The position numbers were made by a program, and so were the translations under genes. DNA of 22,784 nt, filler included, from an uncultured delta proteobacterium (GTDB taxonomy: Bacteria > Desulfobacterota > Desulfobacteria > Desulfobacterales > SG8-13), in the NCBI GenBank assembly GCA_963848135.1. It is 2 parts of 2 records of this genome, joined end to end, with 100 filler letters (N's around TTAATTAATTAA, not from the genome) between each part and the next. Parts side by side here need not be neighbours in the genome. Positions count along the whole stretch, not along the records: positions 9,848 to 22,784 come from CAWKCK010000018.1; 1 more part is not named here. One strand, given 5' to 3'. The notes below the pieces were generated by a model. That model did no database searches and was not told where the DNA came from. It was given only the letters and a program-made list of their open reading frames with translations. This document shows, piece after piece, positions 9,748 to 17,603 of the stretch (the first letter of the stretch is position 1; every line of letters begins with the position of its first letter).

Positions 9748-9847
9748 NNNNNNNNNNNNNNNNNNNNNNNNNNNNNNNNNNNNNNNNNNNNTTAATTAAT
9801 TAANNNNNNNNNNNNNNNNNNNNNNNNNNNNNNNNNNNNNNNNNNNN
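9748..9847. other. Artificial contig linker (N44-TTAATTAATTAA-N44)
   Basis: Exactly 100 bp and symmetric, with a core giving stop codons in all six frames. Confidence 0.98.
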
Positions 9848-10003
9848 GCTCCGCCGCCTTGTAGCGCCGGAGCCTTGTCTTCTTGATTAACGCTTCACTG
9901 GTAAGCATATTGCCGGCGTCTCAATCGGTCCTGGGAACCGTTGCCTGTGGTCCACACAGCAGGTGACCTGGAATTTATCCGCCAGCAATAAGCCTGCGGC
10001 CAC

Positions 10004-10522
10004 TTAAAAATCCAAATTGGCCGGTTCGTAGAATTCGCTTGGGTGTTTGCAAATATGCACATTTCGGCGGTGGTTCGACACCCTCTACTATATAGCCGCA
10101 AATGCTGCATTTCCATTTGATCGCTTGTTCGCGCTTAAAAACAGTGCCAGCCTCGACCATCTGGAGCAATTTTCGGTACCTTTCTCTGTGATGCGCCTCG
10201 ATTTTGGCAACCTGCTTGAAGGCCATGGCCGCTTCCTTTTCGCCTTCTTCCTCAGCGTCTTTGGCAAAGCCGGGTACATGCTTTCGACTTCGTATCTTCC
10301 CCTCCAAAAGTTCCTTGAGGTTGGCCCCGTATCCCCTATTCCGTTCAGCAGTTTGAGATGATCCTTAGCATGCTGTTTTTCATTCTCAGCCGTTTCTTCA
10401 AATATTTTGGCAATGTAATGGTAGCCCTCTTTCCGGGCAACTTTGGCGAAAAACGTATACTTGTTTCTTGCCTGGGACTCACCTGCGAACGCAGCCTTCA
10501 AATTGTCGGTCGTCTTACTCAT
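10004..10522 (-). CDS. rbr: Rubrerythrin (frameshifted in this assembly; about 173 aa when repaired)
   Basis: NLKAAFAGESQARNKY...EETAENEKQHA, YEVESMYP, EAHHRERY, WKCSICGY and a repaired CAYCKHPSEFYEPANLDF*. About 5 single-base indels lie between about 10050 and 10330. Confidence 0.92.
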
Positions 10523-11163: not shown

Positions 11164-11442
11164 TCATCGGGTGTGATCAACACGCCCAGTGCAATATATC
11201 CAGGCCATTTGTAAACCCGGCTGTCCTCTCTGACTACTCTTCTTTATGTCATCAACCAGCTCCCTGACAATGGAAAGCACGTTGCGCCCCCTTTGGCGAG
11301 CGATACGATGTGCCTCGTCCACCAGAATGGTTGCCCGCTGCTTCAGCACACTCTGGGGGGGCAAATCGATTTCATGTCTTTGGTAATGCCAGGCCAGCAA
11401 TCGCGTGGCCACATTTTCTTCCTGTTGTCTAATAAAACCCAC
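11164..11442 (-). CDS. Small hypothetical helical protein
   Basis: AAGGAGG RBS before GTG 11442; GFIRQQEE...LVDEAHRIARQRGRNVLSIVRELV. The C-terminal tail may be an indel artefact. Confidence 0.65.
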   Translation of the reverse strand: MGFIRQQEENVATRLLAWHYQRHEIDLPPQSVLKQRATILVDEAHRIARQRGRNVLSIVRELVDDIKKSSQRGQPGLQMAWIYCTGRVDHTR

Positions 11443-11625
11443 GCTGCCATCCCTCCTTATTTGATAATTCAACTAATGCTTTCGACTTTCCCATGCGCAG
11501 CGCATTGTGTTTTCTGCGTCTTTGCACCGCGCGGGGAAGCTGCAAATGCGCATGCCGGCACCAGACCCCCTGAAAGACGAACTTAACCAGCTGAACGGCG
11601 TACGCATAGTTTTGCGTAGAAAAAC

Positions 11626-13135
11626 TTAGTCATTTTGCCGGCAAATCTTCAGTATCACTTCCTCAAGAATCAAGTGCTTGTTATCGCTACCGGATTTGAT
11701 GCGCAAGTCGGCCATCGAAAGGTATTCGTAAGCTTGGAGGAGTTCCTGTTTCGAAAAATTCTCCGCGTTGTTGAAAAGTTGATATATTGGGTAGGGATTA
11801 TGTGGAAATTTGGCAAGCAACAAATCCGTTTTCAATTGCTTTTTTTTTCCGCGGCTCCGCTTCTTCAGCGGCTTGACTTCGTCATTAACCGGTCCATCCA
11901 GATCATCCCGCCATTGCTGCAGTGTTTCGAGCAGCTTTGAATCGGATTTTTCTACCACTGGCAAGACGTTGGTTCTAAATGTATTATAGTGACAGCCTGA
12001 ACGCCAGATCTGTCCAAGAGGGCTGGAGACAAATTCTTTGATCAACAATAGTTTCCTGACCTGGTTCAAAAGGGCGACCAGTATCTGCTCAGCCCGCAGG
12101 GCGTCCTGTCCCGCAGACATCAGCGCATTCATAAAAAACAAAGCGTCTTCCCTGTTGCGGGACGTAAATGCCCCCGTAAAGGCGTAGACAGGATCCTTTT
12201 TCGTCCGTTTGAGCGTCGAGACGATGTCTTTCCGAGTGATAATATCTCTGCCACCAACGTAACTCACAAGCTTTTCTAAATTGTTAACAATAGCCCTGAG
12301 TTCAAAACCGGTTGTCTCGATCAGGGCCTTATAAGCGTCAGGTGCCAATGATTTACCGCTATCGCGTAGAACGGCATGTACCGTATCTGCCAACACCGCC
12401 TCCTGGGCGGTTTTATCTGCCTTGCGATCGCCCTTGGGAACGGAACAGTCGACGATAACGCCTTGTTCCCGAATGGTCTTATATAGTTTACGGCGTTTGT
12501 CGACCGTGTCAGTTGTTATCAGCAAGCGATGTCCAGCCGGGAATCCTTTTTCGATCGCACGGCAAAGTATGCTCTCATTGTCTATTATTTTTGGAACCTT
12601 GCGCCCCTTTTCCAGGCAAAACGCGATGATATCGTCCAAACACCGATCGTCATCCGGTAGTTCTATCCCAGCAGGAAGGCTCTCCCGCCGGTTCGGTAAA
12701 GACAGATCATCAAAGGAAAGATTCACCAGGGCCATAAATCGCAAAAGGTAGTCGGCCGCTCGATCAGGTTCTGATTTTCATCGCCTTCACGGCAGTGAGC
12801 AAAATATTTTCCGCATTTGTTTTCGAATCGAAAATCTGGGCTTCCAGCAAACCGACAACTTTCGGGCCGGACAGCAATGAAAACGTGTTTATTTTCTCGA
12901 TGGCCTCAGAGACACCGTCATCGTTCCCGTCAATGGGTTCGAAATTGAAGCTTTGATTGGATTCAGGTACCAATCTGTCTAACACCTTTTTAAAAGCCGC
13001 TTTGCAGAGCATTTCTTCGCCATAGATCAGGTATACAGCGAACGGCAAATTGCCACGGTCGTTAGCCTTGTTGTCGTTTACAGAATCGAGACCATTAAGA
13101 TGGTCATCCAAGGTTTTGTAGTTTAGCTCGGTCAT
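11626..13135 (-). CDS. holA: DNA polymerase III delta subunit (long form, about 503 aa; split by indels at about 12760-12790)
   Basis: N-part VYLIYGEE...FNFEPIDG...NTFSLLSGPKVV. C-part VDKRRKLYK, NNLEKLVSYVG and ADLRIKSG...LILEEVILKIC. Two 1-nt insertions join the ORFs. Confidence 0.88.
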
Positions 13136-13165
13136 GGTAAATTTATTGATGGGCGACAATGTCGT

Positions 13166-13942
13166 TCAGGGGCCCTCCGGGATGGGATGTCGGGATCGGT
13201 GCCACAGATATAACAACATGCTCAACCCAGTAACGGCAATGAAGGCACATATGATTTGCGAGTTCGAGATAATCGCTGGCGATGGTTTGGTATATCCTGG
13301 AAAATCGAGAGTATCTACCAGCAATTGAAGCGTGCTGTGAAGTATGACGAAAACCCAGAAGACCCTTCCATCGAAATTTCTGTGCCCTCGCAACATCAGA
13401 AGGATAATGAAAATGAGAAAACTGCCGCTGGCCAGATAAAAGGGTCTCGGATGCAGCATCGCCAACATACTGGTCAGGCCTTCCTCCGGCCAGGCAAGAT
13501 AACCCTCGATCATCGATTCTGTGCGCCTTCCGGGACAAAGGCCCGAAAAAAAGCAGCCAATCCACACAAAAAAATGACCGATTGCCAGGGTCGGTGCAAA
13601 CATGTCGGCGGTTTTCCATAACGGCAATCGCGCATGCCTGATAAATATCAGCCCGACGATGAGGGCGGCAGTCGCCCCGCCATAATAAAACGATCCACCG
13701 TTCCAAAGACGTAAAATTTCCAACGGATCGGCGAAAATGACCTCAGGATTGTAGTACAGGTCACTAAACCTTGCTCCGGCGATTGCCGCAAGCATCAACC
13801 AGAAACAGAGGTCTGCAATGCGGTTTTCGGCACCGCCGGAAGACCGGATCTCAGCCTTAATCATCTGGAGACCGGCGATAAGCGCCACAGAAACGAAGAC
13901 GCCGAAGACAATCGACGGTAGTATATCGGCATCGAAGATCAT
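13166..13942 (-). CDS. lgt: Prolipoprotein diacylglyceryl transferase (Lgt) homologue with degenerate active-site motifs
   Basis: Motifs AIAGARF, DPLEILRLWNGGSFYYGG, ADMFAPTLAIG..WIGCFFSG, LHP..FY, FDGRVF and ISNSQII. Located right after lspA. Confidence 0.85.
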   Translation of the reverse strand: MIFDADILPSIVFGVFVSVALIAGLQMIKAEIRSSGGAENRIADLCFWLMLAAIAGARFSDLYYNPEVIFADPLEILRLWNGGSFYYGGATAALIVGLIFIRHARLPLWKTADMFAPTLAIGHFFVWIGCFFSGLCPGRRTESMIEGYLAWPEEGLTSMLAMLHPRPFYLASGSFLIFIILLMLRGHRNFDGRVFWVFVILHSTLQLLVDTLDFPGYTKPSPAIISNSQIICAFIAVTGLSMLLYLWHRSRHPIPEGP

Positions 13943-14061
13943 CGCGTATTGTCATTGACCCGTGCGGCATTTGCTTGAATTTTGCACGCGTCTGAAAAAT
14001 GGTACACTGCTTCTTCGGTCGGAATGCTTTTCGGCAGAACCCTGGGTAAGGCCCTTCCGAT

Positions 14062-14559
14062 CTACTCTGGTAACTTCTTGAACAGCAGGTGGAGGATGAA
14101 AATTCCTATACCGATAGTTATGGCGCTATCGGCGACGTTAAATGCCGGCCAGTGAAAGTTCCCGATATAGAAATCGAGAAAATCGACAACCTTTCCCAAT
14201 CGAATCCGATCGATAAGATTACCGATGGCACCGCCGAAAATCAATGCAAAAGCGCTGCCCAGTAGAGGATACGACGCCGGTGTTTTCATGTAGTACCACA
14301 GGATCAACCCTACCGCCAGAAGGGAAACGAAGAGAAAAACCACTTTGCGCAGGATCGGGTCGGATTCCGCCAGGAAACCGAATGCTCCTCCAGGATTGTG
14401 AATATGGATAAGATTGAAAAAACCGGGAATCACAGCAATGGTATCGTAAAGCTTCAAGTAGTGCGCTATCAGCGTTTTGGTGACCTGGTCGAGAAGCACC
14501 ACCATGCCGCTGATGACCAGCAGCCTCGTTATCTTGTTTCCCTCTATTGTCACAATCAC
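14062..14559 (-). CDS. lspA: Lipoprotein signal peptidase II
   Basis: Motifs LDQVTK, NPGGAFG, GGAIGNLIDR, VVDFLD and WPAFNVADSAI, with both catalytic Asp present. Follows ileS. Confidence 0.97.
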   Translation of the reverse strand: MIVTIEGNKITRLLVISGMVVLLDQVTKTLIAHYLKLYDTIAVIPGFFNLIHIHNPGGAFGFLAESDPILRKVVFLFVSLLAVGLILWYYMKTPASYPLLGSAFALIFGGAIGNLIDRIRLGKVVDFLDFYIGNFHWPAFNVADSAITIGIGIFILHLLFKKLPE

Positions 14560-14801
14560 GCTCTTATTTAGTGTTGATCCATAGAAGGATTTTTTAACGC
14601 TGGGATCGCCATGGCGGGATTATCCGCAGGTTTAAAAGGCTGCGGCTCAAATACAGTGCCCCTCGCCGCAGACCTTTGTGCGGTCTTGCCCAGCATAAAA
14701 TTTCTCATTTATGAATTTGACACTCAAAATAGCCTTATCCAATTGTGGATGGCCGACTTAGAAATACGGCCTTCACAAACGCGCAGTCCATCGACTATTC
14801 G

Positions 14802-17603
14802 TCAGTCAGTCATTTCTTCCAGCGATGATTTGCAGCGGTTGCAGATCCTCGGATGATCGTCGAAAGTACCGACCGATGTATCATGAACCCAACAGCGTTC
14901 GCATTTTTCACCTGCCGCTCTTTCAACGAGTACCTGCAATCCCTCTATTTCCTCACTCTCGTATGCATTATCAAATTTTGCATCAATAACAAGCGCGGTC
15001 TGGGAGACGATAAAAATGGATCGTAACTCCCCGGCATACGGCGCCAATACAGCGTGTTGGGCTTTGGGAACCGAGATGGTGACGGCGGCATCCAGCGGGT
15101 GGCCAATAAGTTTTCGCGCCCTGGCGGCCTCGAGCGCTTTGGTAACCTCTGCCCTAACGGACAGCAGATTTTCCCAGTTCTTTTGCAGGTCTTCGTTCTT
15201 CCACTCGGCATGCACCTTCGGCAGGGTGGTCATGTGAATGCTCTCAGCTTTTCCCGGTCGATCGGGCATATGGGCCCAAATCTCCTCGGAGGAAAATACG
15301 AGAATGGGTGCCATCAAGCGGGCCATTGCATCCACAATGGTATACATCACCGTCTGGGCGCTTCTCCGCCCGCTCGAACCGGCCGGTGAGGTATAAAGAC
15401 GGTCTTTGAGAATATCCAGATAAAAAGCCGACAGATCAAGGGTACAGTAGTTGTATAGACGGTGATAAATCACGTGAAAATCGAATTTTTCGTAGGCTTT
15501 GTCGACAATTTCCGTTAGTTCTTGAAGCTTGTGCAGGGCAAACCGGTCGATTTGCGGCATTGCATCATAGGCAAGGCTGTCCGTCTCCGGGTTAAAGTCG
15601 TAGAGGTTACCCAACATGAATCGGGCGGTGTTGCGGATACGGCGATAGGCATCACTGAGCTGTTTGAGAATGTTTTCGGAAATCCGTACGTCTTCCCGAT
15701 AGTCGGAGGCCGTCACCCAAAGACGCAGGATTTCGGCACCGTATTTGTCGATAACTTCTTTGGGGGCAACGACATTGCCAATCGATTTTGACATCTTACG
15801 GCCATCGGCATCCACGACGAATCCATGGGTCAGAACCGATTTATATGGCGCACGATCACGTGTCCCCACGGCAGTCAGTAATGAGCTGTGAAACCATCCC
15901 CGGTGCTGGTCACTCCCCTCCAGGTATAGATCCGCCGGCCAGTTCAAATTTGATCGCTGTTCCAGAACGGCTGCGTGGCTGACGCCTGAATCGAACCAAA
16001 CATCCAGAATATCGTCTTCTTTTTTAACGGATTTGCTGCCGCATTCGGGGCATGCGGCGTCGGCCGGTAAAAAATACTCGGCCGGTTTTTCGAACCAAAT
16101 GTCGGCACCGTGGGTGGCAAACAGGTCACAAACGCGATTCATGATGACTTCGTCGCGTAAAAGCGTGCCGCAGTCTTCACAGTAAAACACCGCAATTGGA
16201 ACTCCCCAGGCCCGTTGCCGTGACACACACCAATCGGGTCGATTTTCGATCATCCCATATATGCGCTCGCGACCCCAGCCAGGAATCCACTTGACCCGAT
16301 CGATTTCTTCCAAGGTTCTTTGGCGCAACCCCGTCTTATCCATGGAAATAAACCACTGGGGCGTGGCCCGGAAAATGACGGGTTGTTTGCAGCGCCAACA
16401 GTGAGGGTAGGAATGCTCGAAATTCGCCTCAACGATCAAAGCCCCATGTTCCTTGAGTTTGGCATTTATGGCCTTGTTGGCGTCAAATACAAACTGCCCC
16501 TTGAAAAATTCGACATCTTCGGTAAACCGTCCGCGATCGTCGACGGGAGAATAAACTTCCAACCCGTATTGGAGACCGACCTCGTAATCCTCGCGCCCGT
16601 GCCCGGGAGCGGTGTGCACGCAACCGGTTCCGGCCTCAAGGGTTACATGATTTCCCAGGATGATAAGCGAATCCCGTTCGTAAAGGGGATGCCGACACGT
16701 CTTGCGTTCCAGGCGCTCGGCCCCGATTTCGGCCAAGATCCGGTAAGTGCCAATGCCAAAAGTGAGCATGCAGGCGTCTACCAAATCTTTCGCTATAATC
16801 AGAACCTCGTTCCGCCCCACATCCACGGCCGAATAAATAAAATCAGGGTGCAGGGCAACGGCCATATTCGCCGGAAGGGTCCACGGGGTGGTGGTCCAAA
16901 TGACCACAGAAACCTTCTTGCCAGCGAGATCTGGAAATTCCTGGCTCAAGTCATCCTTTAAGGGAAACTTTACGAATATGGAGGGCGACGCCTCGTCTGC
17001 GTATTCGATTTCTGCCTCAGCCAATGCGGTCTGGCAGTCGTTGCACCAGTAAATCGGTTTTTTGCTTCTAAACAAGCTGTTATTCAGCACAAATCTCCAG
17101 CACTCACGGGCGATCGTCGACTCGTAAAGATAATTCATTGTCAGATAGGGATTATCCCATTCGCCCATAACACCCAAGCGTTTGAATTCTTCCCGCTGAA
17201 TATCGATGAATTTTTCGGCATATGTCCGGCAGAGGCGGCGCACGTCGGTCAATGAAAGATCCTTCTTTTTCTGGCCGAGTTCCTTGTCGACGTTGTGTTC
17301 AATGGGGAGCCCGTGACAGTCCCAGCCGGGCACATAAACGGCATCATATCCGGACATCTGCCGCGACCGCACGATCATATCTTTAAGAATCTTATTCATC
17401 GCGGTCCCAATATGGATGTGGCCATTGGCATAGGGCGGTCCGTCGTGCAGGATAAATCGCTCGCAACCGTCTGAAGCCGTTCTGATTTTCGTGTGCAGCT
17501 GCATCTTTTCCCAGTCGCCCAATTGTGCGGGTTCGCGGTTGGCAAGATTCGCCTTCATCGGAAATTTCGTAGACGGCAGATTGAGCGTTTTCTTGTAGTC
17601 CAT
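14802..17603 (-). CDS. ileS: Isoleucyl-tRNA synthetase (type 1)
   Basis: Motifs [66 protein letters not shown] and C-terminal Zn finger CERCW...CNRC. GGAGG RBS. Confidence 0.99.

Follow-up and report, generated by a model that had tools for sequence, protein, structure and literature searches.

The 22,784-nucleotide stretch of DNA analysed here (the window, filler included) comes from the metagenome bin of an uncultured delta proteobacterium of the Desulfobacterales. At 13166..13942 on its minus strand lies a gene, here called LgtX, that encodes a homologue of prolipoprotein diacylglyceryl transferase (Lgt) with seven predicted transmembrane (TM) helices and with the Lgt catalytic network lost. 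LgtX is the positional orthologue of the lspA-linked, 'CC-type' Lgt of its order, and it is kept by purifying selection of a strength near that acting on its intact relatives. The pattern of lost residues suggests that it no longer catalyses the canonical reaction. On the sequence evidence set out below we lean, if only somewhat, towards LgtX being a non-catalytic pseudoenzyme that retains a second, non-enzymatic property of the ancestral protein.

In the maturation of bacterial lipoproteins the first step, that of Lgt, is regarded as universal, essential and invariant, and Lgt counts as a target for antibiotics. The order examined here provides a natural series at a single chromosomal slot, in which the enzyme is intact in some genomes, stripped yet conserved in others and deleted in still others. 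As the series shows, displacement of one Lgt subtype by another is possible, and selection can maintain the displaced protein over long periods after its active site has gone.

The LgtX protein and its active-site positions

An earlier note on this DNA had proposed an intact, full-length Lgt homologue at the lspA locus in which the catalytic motifs were replaced. Indeed, the open reading frame (ORF) starts at an ATG, remains open for 258 amino acids and matches the Pfam LGT family PF01790 at 126.2 bits (gathering cut-off 24.9) over profile positions 13-240 of 240; the match to E. coli Lgt (5azb) has an E-value of 1.3e-13. With TIGR00544 it scores 88.8 bits, below the curated cut-off of 118.9, and so falls outside the equivalog. 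The altered motifs are all present as quoted in the note: FG at residues 13-14, VWIGCF at 126-131, HPRPFYL at 164-170 and HSTLQLLVDTLD at 202-213. The Lgt signature as worded in passages of PMC4728403 and PMC13251419, G142-R-x-G-(N/C)-x-x-x-G-(E/C/D)-x-x-G154, is broken, the window reading V-W-I-G-C-F-F-S-G-L-C-P-G. The protein carries the changes Y26F, G142V, R143W, leucine at the E151 position, Y235H, R239Q and R246D, and the hydrogen-bond network formed by Y26, Y235, E243 and R246 has given way to F13, H202, D210 and D213. The H103 and D129 positions are still acceptably occupied, by Y87 and D113. A colinear alignment with the canonical Lgt of the same genome places W127 at R143, Q206 at R239 and F13 at Y26, and in the HMMER pairwise alignment with 5azb the E. 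coli GRLG falls in an insertion; under neither alignment is an arginine aligned. The tryptophan codon lies where the note had put it, at 13562..13564 (TGG on the minus strand, cca on the plus strand).

The TM scaffold, which the note had supposed to be retained, is predicted to be intact. A first model, built from a 15-row alignment, had a predicted local distance difference test (pLDDT) score of 63.9 and was replaced by an AlphaFold2 model from a 127-row alignment, with a pLDDT of 85.8, a predicted template modelling score (pTM) of 0.84 and seven long helices (residues 7-35, 39-64, 86-103, 108-133, 165-185, 193-211 and 227-251). Residues 140-158 of the head were modelled at low confidence (pLDDT <50). 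In a Foldseek search of the PDB, 5azb was the sole match at E <= 0.001 (E 2.2e-7; query template modelling score, TMq, 0.72; 24% identity), and the ESM Atlas matches were generic LGT clusters only. LgtX thus resembles E. coli Lgt (5AZB/5AZC) in its PF01790 match, its seven-TM fold and its retention of D129, P197, Y201 and the arm-2 GG..GG glycines. It differs in lacking Y26, G142, R143, N146, E151, E202, Y235, R239 and R246, in having aspartate for E243, and in its short, variable, low-confidence head.

We then read the key columns across relatives, using the best 150 sequences of the graded list that a profile search gave against 1.84 billion representatives. The intact relatives that come nearest are CC-type proteins, not E. 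coli-type ones, and have tyrosine at the H103 position and cysteine at the N146 and E151 positions, with the signature GRxGCFxAGCCYG. Fifteen positions (Y26, D129, G142, R143, C146, A149, C151, G154, H196, Q199, Y201, Y235, R239, E243 and R246) are invariant in 27/27 intact CC-type proteins of the order, the intact sequences having been cut to their first 270 residues and L085, with its fused 682-aa frame, left out. Only D129 and Y201 survive in the 26 LgtX sequences, 12 of which, including that of the window, form subclade A and 14 subclade B. The Y26 position is now F or L, and G142 is V in 26/26. R143 has become W in 12/12 members of subclade A and Y in 14/14 of subclade B. The C146 position is C in subclade A and L, F or V in subclade B; that of C151 is L in subclade A and Q, Y, R, F or H in subclade B. 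Glutamine occupies the R239 position in 21/26 sequences (Q7 R3 K1 F1 in subclade A, Q14 in subclade B), E243 is replaced by D or A, and R246 by D, A, G, V or E. Within subclade A the H196 position takes six states and the R239 position four. The note's list of replaced residues therefore stands for Y26, R143, R239 and others, but not for the H103 and N146 positions, at which Y and C are the normal CC-type state (27/27 intact relatives) and not losses.

Many of these positions have been probed in E. coli Lgt. Passages of PMC4728403 report as inactive or non-complementing Y26A/F/Q, G142A/I/V, R143A/E/K, E151A/Q, Y235F/L/S, R239A/E/H/K/Q, E243A/Q/R and R246A/E/H/K/Q. Since Y26F, G142V and R239Q are exact matches to these dead variants, LgtX carries three tested inactivating changes.

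Apart from its losses, LgtX is recognisably a member of the CC-type group. In a protein tree (without proteins of <200 aa, P0001, P0002 and the duplicate loci L064 and L065), a 30-tip LgtX core lacking R143 (support 0.89) lies inside a wider degenerate clade, which in turn lies inside the CC-type. With the intact proteins (e.g. L067-L071 and L076-L085) LgtX shares the chromosomal slot, a length of ~250-260 aa, the tyrosine and cysteine at the H103 and N146 positions, KTAD..AP..A.GH in loop 2/TM4 and a DLCFW-like TM2. The intact proteins differ from it in keeping all 15 key positions, in passing TIGR00544 and in being the only Lgt found in their own genomes, whereas LgtX has lost the key residues and always stands beside an E. 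coli-type Lgt. TIGR00544 scores erode from 156.7-170.3 bits in intact CC-type proteins (4/4 pass) through 135 in family f19 and 112 in f85 to 43-89 in f1, the window's family (42.6-70.3 in five other f1 members). Conservation particular to LgtX concerns residues of TM2-TM6, aromatic or small for the most part, among them C46, F47, W48, F85, Y86, W109, H123, F124, V126, F132, S133, L170 and W196.

Selection was estimated by the Nei-Gojobori method as the ratio of nonsynonymous (dN) to synonymous (dS) substitution rates, sequences of <80% of the longest being dropped for each gene. For LgtX, 10 close pairs gave dN/dS values of 0.18-0.28; the 8 pairs submitted to codon bootstrapping gave 0.18-0.30, and 0/1000 replicates reached 1, at dS up to ~1.2. 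Corresponding values were 0.09-0.11 for the canonical Lgt of the same genomes, 0.095-0.145 for LspA, 0.06-0.10 for IleS, 0.13-0.18 for the C-terminal part of HolA, and 0.13 and 0.23 for two intact CC-type pairs. These ratios speak for purifying selection and against neutral decay of a strain-specific copy, an outcome that the note had entertained. The pattern is maintained across independent assemblies.

The distribution of constraint has shifted. Pairwise identity in the head (134-164) is 0.39 in LgtX, the lowest of any region (overall 0.57), versus 0.73 in intact CC-type proteins, where it is among the highest (overall 0.61). In TM4 it is 0.79 in LgtX versus 0.74 in the intact proteins, and reaches 0.93 within subclade A. 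The periplasmic head is freed of constraint, and the TM3-TM5 core is highly conserved. Fifteen LgtX sequences spanning down to 45% identity have 52 invariant columns, and a full-length frame (250-258 aa aligned) is present in 15/15 loci examined.

A second Lgt, and the ileS-lspA-X-holA slot across the order

A PF01790 search of the whole source bin found matches in three places. Contig C3 encodes a canonical Lgt of 285 aa (PF01790 241.4 bits, TIGR00544 247.2 bits) with the motifs GRLGNF, HPSQLYE and YGTVRFFIEYFR, so that the second lgt envisaged in the note does exist. The third place is contig C15 (46 kb), which encodes a protein 84% identical to the LgtX of the window. C15 (L002) holds a second copy of the whole ileS-lspA-LgtX-holA region, ~95% identical in nucleotides (nt) to the start of C18, the contig on which LgtX lies. 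The dS between the two is uneven (IleS 0.13, LgtX 0.41, HolA 0.43), and C15 probably represents a co-binned related strain, perhaps with recombination.

A word-indexed protein search returned 19 proteins at E <= 1e-5, of which 16 were 46-97% identical to LgtX before a drop to 26-30%. A scan of species-representative genomes gave 22 loci, 13 of them (L004-L016) encoding proteins 40-87% identical to LgtX. The hosts of these 13 are all Desulfobacterales or 'delta proteobacterium' metagenome-assembled genomes. The gene order ileS-lspA-LgtX-holA is kept in 13/13, as far as the contigs reach, and each genome also encodes a canonical Lgt (13/13; 228.7-240.9 bits, against 62.2-124.5 bits for their LgtX). 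Two of the 13 genomes hold a third PF01790 gene. Third PF01790 genes with intact CC-type residues were seen at L039 (G003:C20), L042 (G009:C76) and G036:C126, one of them in a 664-aa frame.

To place LgtX in its order, 201 genomes were searched twice, with an LgtX/CC profile and with the genome's own canonical Lgt; the genome of L014 corresponds to G148 of this sample (IleS distance zero). Counting from the matches listed, 113/201 genomes scored >=110 bits with the LgtX/CC profile, the next scores being <=98 bits, and 84/201 scored >=200 bits with E. coli-type Lgt. Thirteen genomes held both types. The slot gene was fetched from all 13 and from 48 of the 100 genomes with a profile match only, these 48 having been chosen from the score list before any residues were seen (28 with scores of >=164 bits and 20 from further down). 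The order ileS-lspA-X-holA was found in 20/20 of the loci fetched with flanks.

Three states of the slot emerged. In genomes with the CC-type only, the slot gene is intact at the key positions in 47/48 sampled. In genomes with both types it is degenerate in 9/13, and intact or nearly so in 4/13 (G118, G090, G154 and G151). In genomes with only the E. coli type, sampled from five families, the slot is empty of any lgt, and holA comes next after lspA (5/5). The nine degenerate genes belong to f1 (G000, the source genome of the window, G148, G086 and G193, the last partial), f19 (G036 and G207, both with R143M and R239F), f85 (G103, with R143K, H196Q, Y235F and R246N; G159, with R239Q, E243A and R246Y) and f22 (G039, with Y26S and R143S). 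Outside genomes that encode an E. coli-type Lgt as well, a degenerate copy was seen once, in G019. Its gene, the one departure among the 48, carries R143T, Y235D and E243D and is the only PF01790 match in a 91%-complete bin; it is possible that this Lgt is active without R143. An internal TAG in the gene (L126, G019:C5:528600-529850) was flagged by one search but not by the other.

Two further irregularities were noted. In G103, a single-contig genome, the E. coli-type lgt at C1:487199-487983 is found in two frames, matching profile positions 1-40 and 21-238, which may mean that the 'good' copy is frameshifted or contains an error. At L085 (G178:C1:655678-664394), the intact CC-type slot lgt lies in a frame of 682-697 aa that runs on towards holA, through either fusion or loss of the stop codon.

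A single-gene tree of IleS, built without L010, L073 and L081, which lacked an IleS sequence, and weak in its deep nodes, groups f1 with f85 (clade support 0.998) and sets f19 apart. This implies that degeneration took place independently two or more times. Lineages that have the E. coli type alone are dispersed through the tree. From the three states of the slot it follows that LgtX descends in place from the ancestral lspA-linked Lgt, displaced as an enzyme and retained as a gene.

What LgtX may have retained

LgtX has three features expected of a pseudoenzyme: its catalytic residues are gone with the fold kept, an active family member is encoded in the same genome, and the gene is under purifying selection. 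The residue loss, the exact dead variants and the selection data together support the note's contention that this copy would be unable to carry out the canonical reaction and yet is retained. The name 'prolipoprotein diacylglyceryl transferase' given to genes of the clade by automatic annotation (source names) is probably wrong.

We propose that, in the window's family, the E. coli-type Lgt encoded elsewhere would perform diacylglyceryl transfer and that, because this second, normal Lgt does the job, the lspA-linked copy could lose its periplasmic network (Y26, G142, R143, C151, G154, H196, Q199, Y235, R239, E243 and R246) together with the constraint on the head domain. Unlike in other lineages, the gene has escaped deletion and is kept under purifying selection as an intact seven-TM protein, co-oriented between lspA and holA. 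Selection would then preserve a non-catalytic property of the TM core, arm-2 and cytoplasmic loops. A candidate is the membrane-embedded binding of lipid, prolipoprotein signal peptide or a partner, which might use arm-2 and the cytoplasmic loops along with the conserved core of TM2-TM6. Should the retained role prove non-enzymatic, LgtX would be a natural separation-of-function allele that could reveal other membrane roles of Lgt, such as hand-off to LspA. Prediction of an LspA-LgtX complex gave a score of 0.00, which is uninformative either way.

Several observations weigh against a non-catalytic LgtX. Purifying selection that matches the intact enzyme's in strength would be equally compatible with a working enzyme. 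In subclade A the S198 position, residue 166, is conserved as basic (R in 11 sequences and K in 1, of 12), D210 is kept (11/12), and W127, C130 and H123 are kept in TM4; R166/D210 and W127/C130/H123 could form a reduced polar site. Q206 is common to both subclades (7/12 and 14/14). The sole Lgt of G019 lacks R143, and loss of R143 alone may therefore be tolerated in the CC subtype; G118 holds both types with a nearly intact CC copy, so coexistence is not always accompanied by decay. In passages of PMC13251419 its authors take Lgts lacking R143 and R239 to be enzymes with another substrate or mechanism. Finally, all the genomes concerned are metagenome bins, so that the absence of a gene is never certain.

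The strongest alternative, which we consider rather unlikely but take seriously, is that LgtX remains an enzyme with a rebuilt pocket, using a donor other than phosphatidylglycerol or a different mechanism, and possibly acting on some of the prolipoproteins that pass to the neighbouring LspA. The re-tooled residues would be W/Y127, H123, S133, Y86/Y87, Y169 and Q206, with R166/D210 in subclade A. Such an enzyme would account for purifying selection comparable to that on intact CC-type Lgt, for the conservation of TM4 and arm-2 above that of the intact enzyme, and for the several polar or aromatic residues at or near the old site that are fixed within subclades; moreover, passages of PMC13251419 make the same proposal for R143/R239-less Lgts of other taxa. 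However, the old active-site positions differ between the subclades (W/Y, C/L/F/V, L/Q/Y/R/F/H, H/N/D/S, H/L/N and D/A), and those of the head, TM5 and TM6, H196 and R239 among them, vary even inside subclade A. The head, which is the least conserved and least confidently modelled region, also fits poorly with a rebuilt catalytic site, and not one periplasm-facing basic residue is conserved clade-wide.

If LgtX were enzymatic, it would point to a second lipidation chemistry. A more specific and frankly speculative version, which strikes us as improbable, is that LgtX is a lipid transferase with a largely uncharged pocket that places a lipid not derived from phosphatidylglycerol onto a subset of prolipoproteins. 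Neutral or ether lipids have been reported from sulfate reducers, and would be a speculative example of such a donor. Two parallel lipidation routes would then lead into one LspA.

Lgts without these two arginines are already in print for other taxa, R143 and R239 being the residues concerned. Passages of PMC13251419 describe a subgroup without R143 and R239 in Deinococci, Acidimicrobiales, Anaerolineales, Acidobacteriales as well as Myxococcales, ~1,300 genomes with two lgt copies, distant Lgts with C at N146 and C or D at E151, and tolerance of Y, W or F at H103 in some phyla. LgtX resembles the subgroup in matching PF01790 and in the absence of both 'fully conserved' arginines. It differs in its taxa, and the likeness is one of description. 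In the main text of that paper the terms 'Desulfo' and 'Deltaproteobacteria' do not occur, and term searches of that text and the passages drawn on here show no analysis of synteny, selection or displacement; its supplements may hold related sequences. The same passages mention MSMEG_5408 of M. smegmatis, a second Lgt beside the major one, with Y26H and N146C and 'presumed low Lgt activity'. This protein, again likened by description only, differs from LgtX in having two named positions changed versus ~11. Our literature search returned no paper that calls an Lgt homologue a pseudoenzyme, none on degenerate second lgt copies and none on the Lgt of Desulfobacterales, and the lipocone paper mentions Lgt in passing only. 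Since R143/R239-less Lgts have been published, the kind is known and the novelty moderate; what is new here is this LgtX clade, the history of the slot and the selection data.

We think it quite improbable that LgtX is a functionless relic heading for deletion, with a frame that stays open only owing to its place between lspA and the essential holA, by translational coupling or operon polarity. Such a relic would agree with the deletion of the gene from the same slot in other lineages (5/5 sampled), with the stepwise erosion of TIGR00544 scores over families, and with LgtX being the fastest-changing member of the block (at L008, IleS is 79%, LspA 73% and LgtX 48% identical). It is contradicted by bootstrap intervals on dN/dS that exclude 1, by the 52 invariant columns and by the full-length frame at every one of the 15 loci. 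In addition, polarity selects against stop codons, not against amino-acid change.

It is very improbable that LgtX still carries out the ordinary phosphatidylglycerol:prolipoprotein reaction by means of residues placed elsewhere. Although the fold is intact, D129, Y201 and the arm-2 glycines are kept, and G019 has a sole Lgt without R143, ~11 of the 15 positions invariant in the intact relatives are changed, three of the substitutions being exactly those that passages of PMC4728403 report as lethal to E. coli Lgt activity; the protein scores below the TIGR00544 cut-off, and a canonical Lgt invariably accompanies it. That the pattern arose in assembly or sequencing can be dismissed, since, despite indel errors nearby in holA, the changes in LgtX are in-frame substitutions, their pattern is shared with 26 clade sequences of other assemblies, and contigs from other runs agree with parts of the gene, gap-free and at 0-5 differences.

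The gene block and the remainder of the window

The window joins contig C16 (1-9747) to the start of the 889-kb contig C18 (9848-22784), from a bin of 6.03 Mb in 18 contigs. The N spacers at 9748-9791 and 9804-9847 separate two molecules, so that the C16/C18 junction carries no meaning. Four genes lie in a row on the minus strand of C18: ileS, lspA, LgtX and a split holA. The first, at 14802..17603 (minus strand), is an ORF of 933 aa that is 60-94% identical to tblastn matches at the same place in related loci; it is presumably ileS, as the earlier note names it. The lspA gene, at 14062..14559 (minus strand), encodes a canonical lipoprotein signal peptidase II, as had been claimed (PF01252 149.2 bits; TIGR00077 124.1 bits versus a cut-off of 73.95), and lies 119 nt upstream of LgtX on the same strand. 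A promoter and terminator scan of 11400-14900 gave counts no higher than those in shuffled sequence, and none between lspA and LgtX.

The N-terminal part of holA, at 12764..13159 (minus strand; PF06144 33.8 bits, TIGR01128 41.5 bits), begins ~7-30 nt past the LgtX stop and is ended by a frame error in the assembly. The C-terminal part follows in another frame at 11626..12744 (minus strand; TIGR01128 115.4 bits, PF21694 49.2 bits). Compared with contigs of four public runs from three studies, two single-base gaps at 12761..12781 split the gene: one additional base is present in those contigs behind 12761 (X1, X2 and X20) or 12763 (X3), and another behind 12781 in all four. The C15 copy of holA is a single continuous frame, and the split in the window is most likely an assembly indel error. 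These gaps agree with the note's remark that the nearby indels are unlike the in-frame substitutions of LgtX, for the interior of which zero indels were reported in the public-run contigs. Record 26 of X3 spans 13332-13592 gap-free, the W127 codon included. In single runs some stretches of the gene have no contig cover, to which we attach no meaning. A contig from an RNA library equals 13341-13510 at 0 differences, but DNA carry-over is possible and this is no proof of transcription. At 13151-13157, between the LgtX stop and the holA start, contigs of other runs have 174-221 extra letters; at L004 and L005 the LgtX-holA gap is ~190-210 nt, versus <30 nt in the window.

Elsewhere in the window, overlapping ORFs of 144 and 110 aa lie in different frames at 9975-10522 on the minus strand. 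They look like two halves of one putative rubrerythrin-like protein, and they may mark another assembly indel error. An Rfam scan of the window gave zero matches, including at 7261-7486 on C16. This last region contains a ~210-nt stretch of which at least 30 copies, at 78-92% identity, are found over 10 contigs of the genome, and for which a dispersed repeat, a miniature mobile element and an RNA are all candidates.

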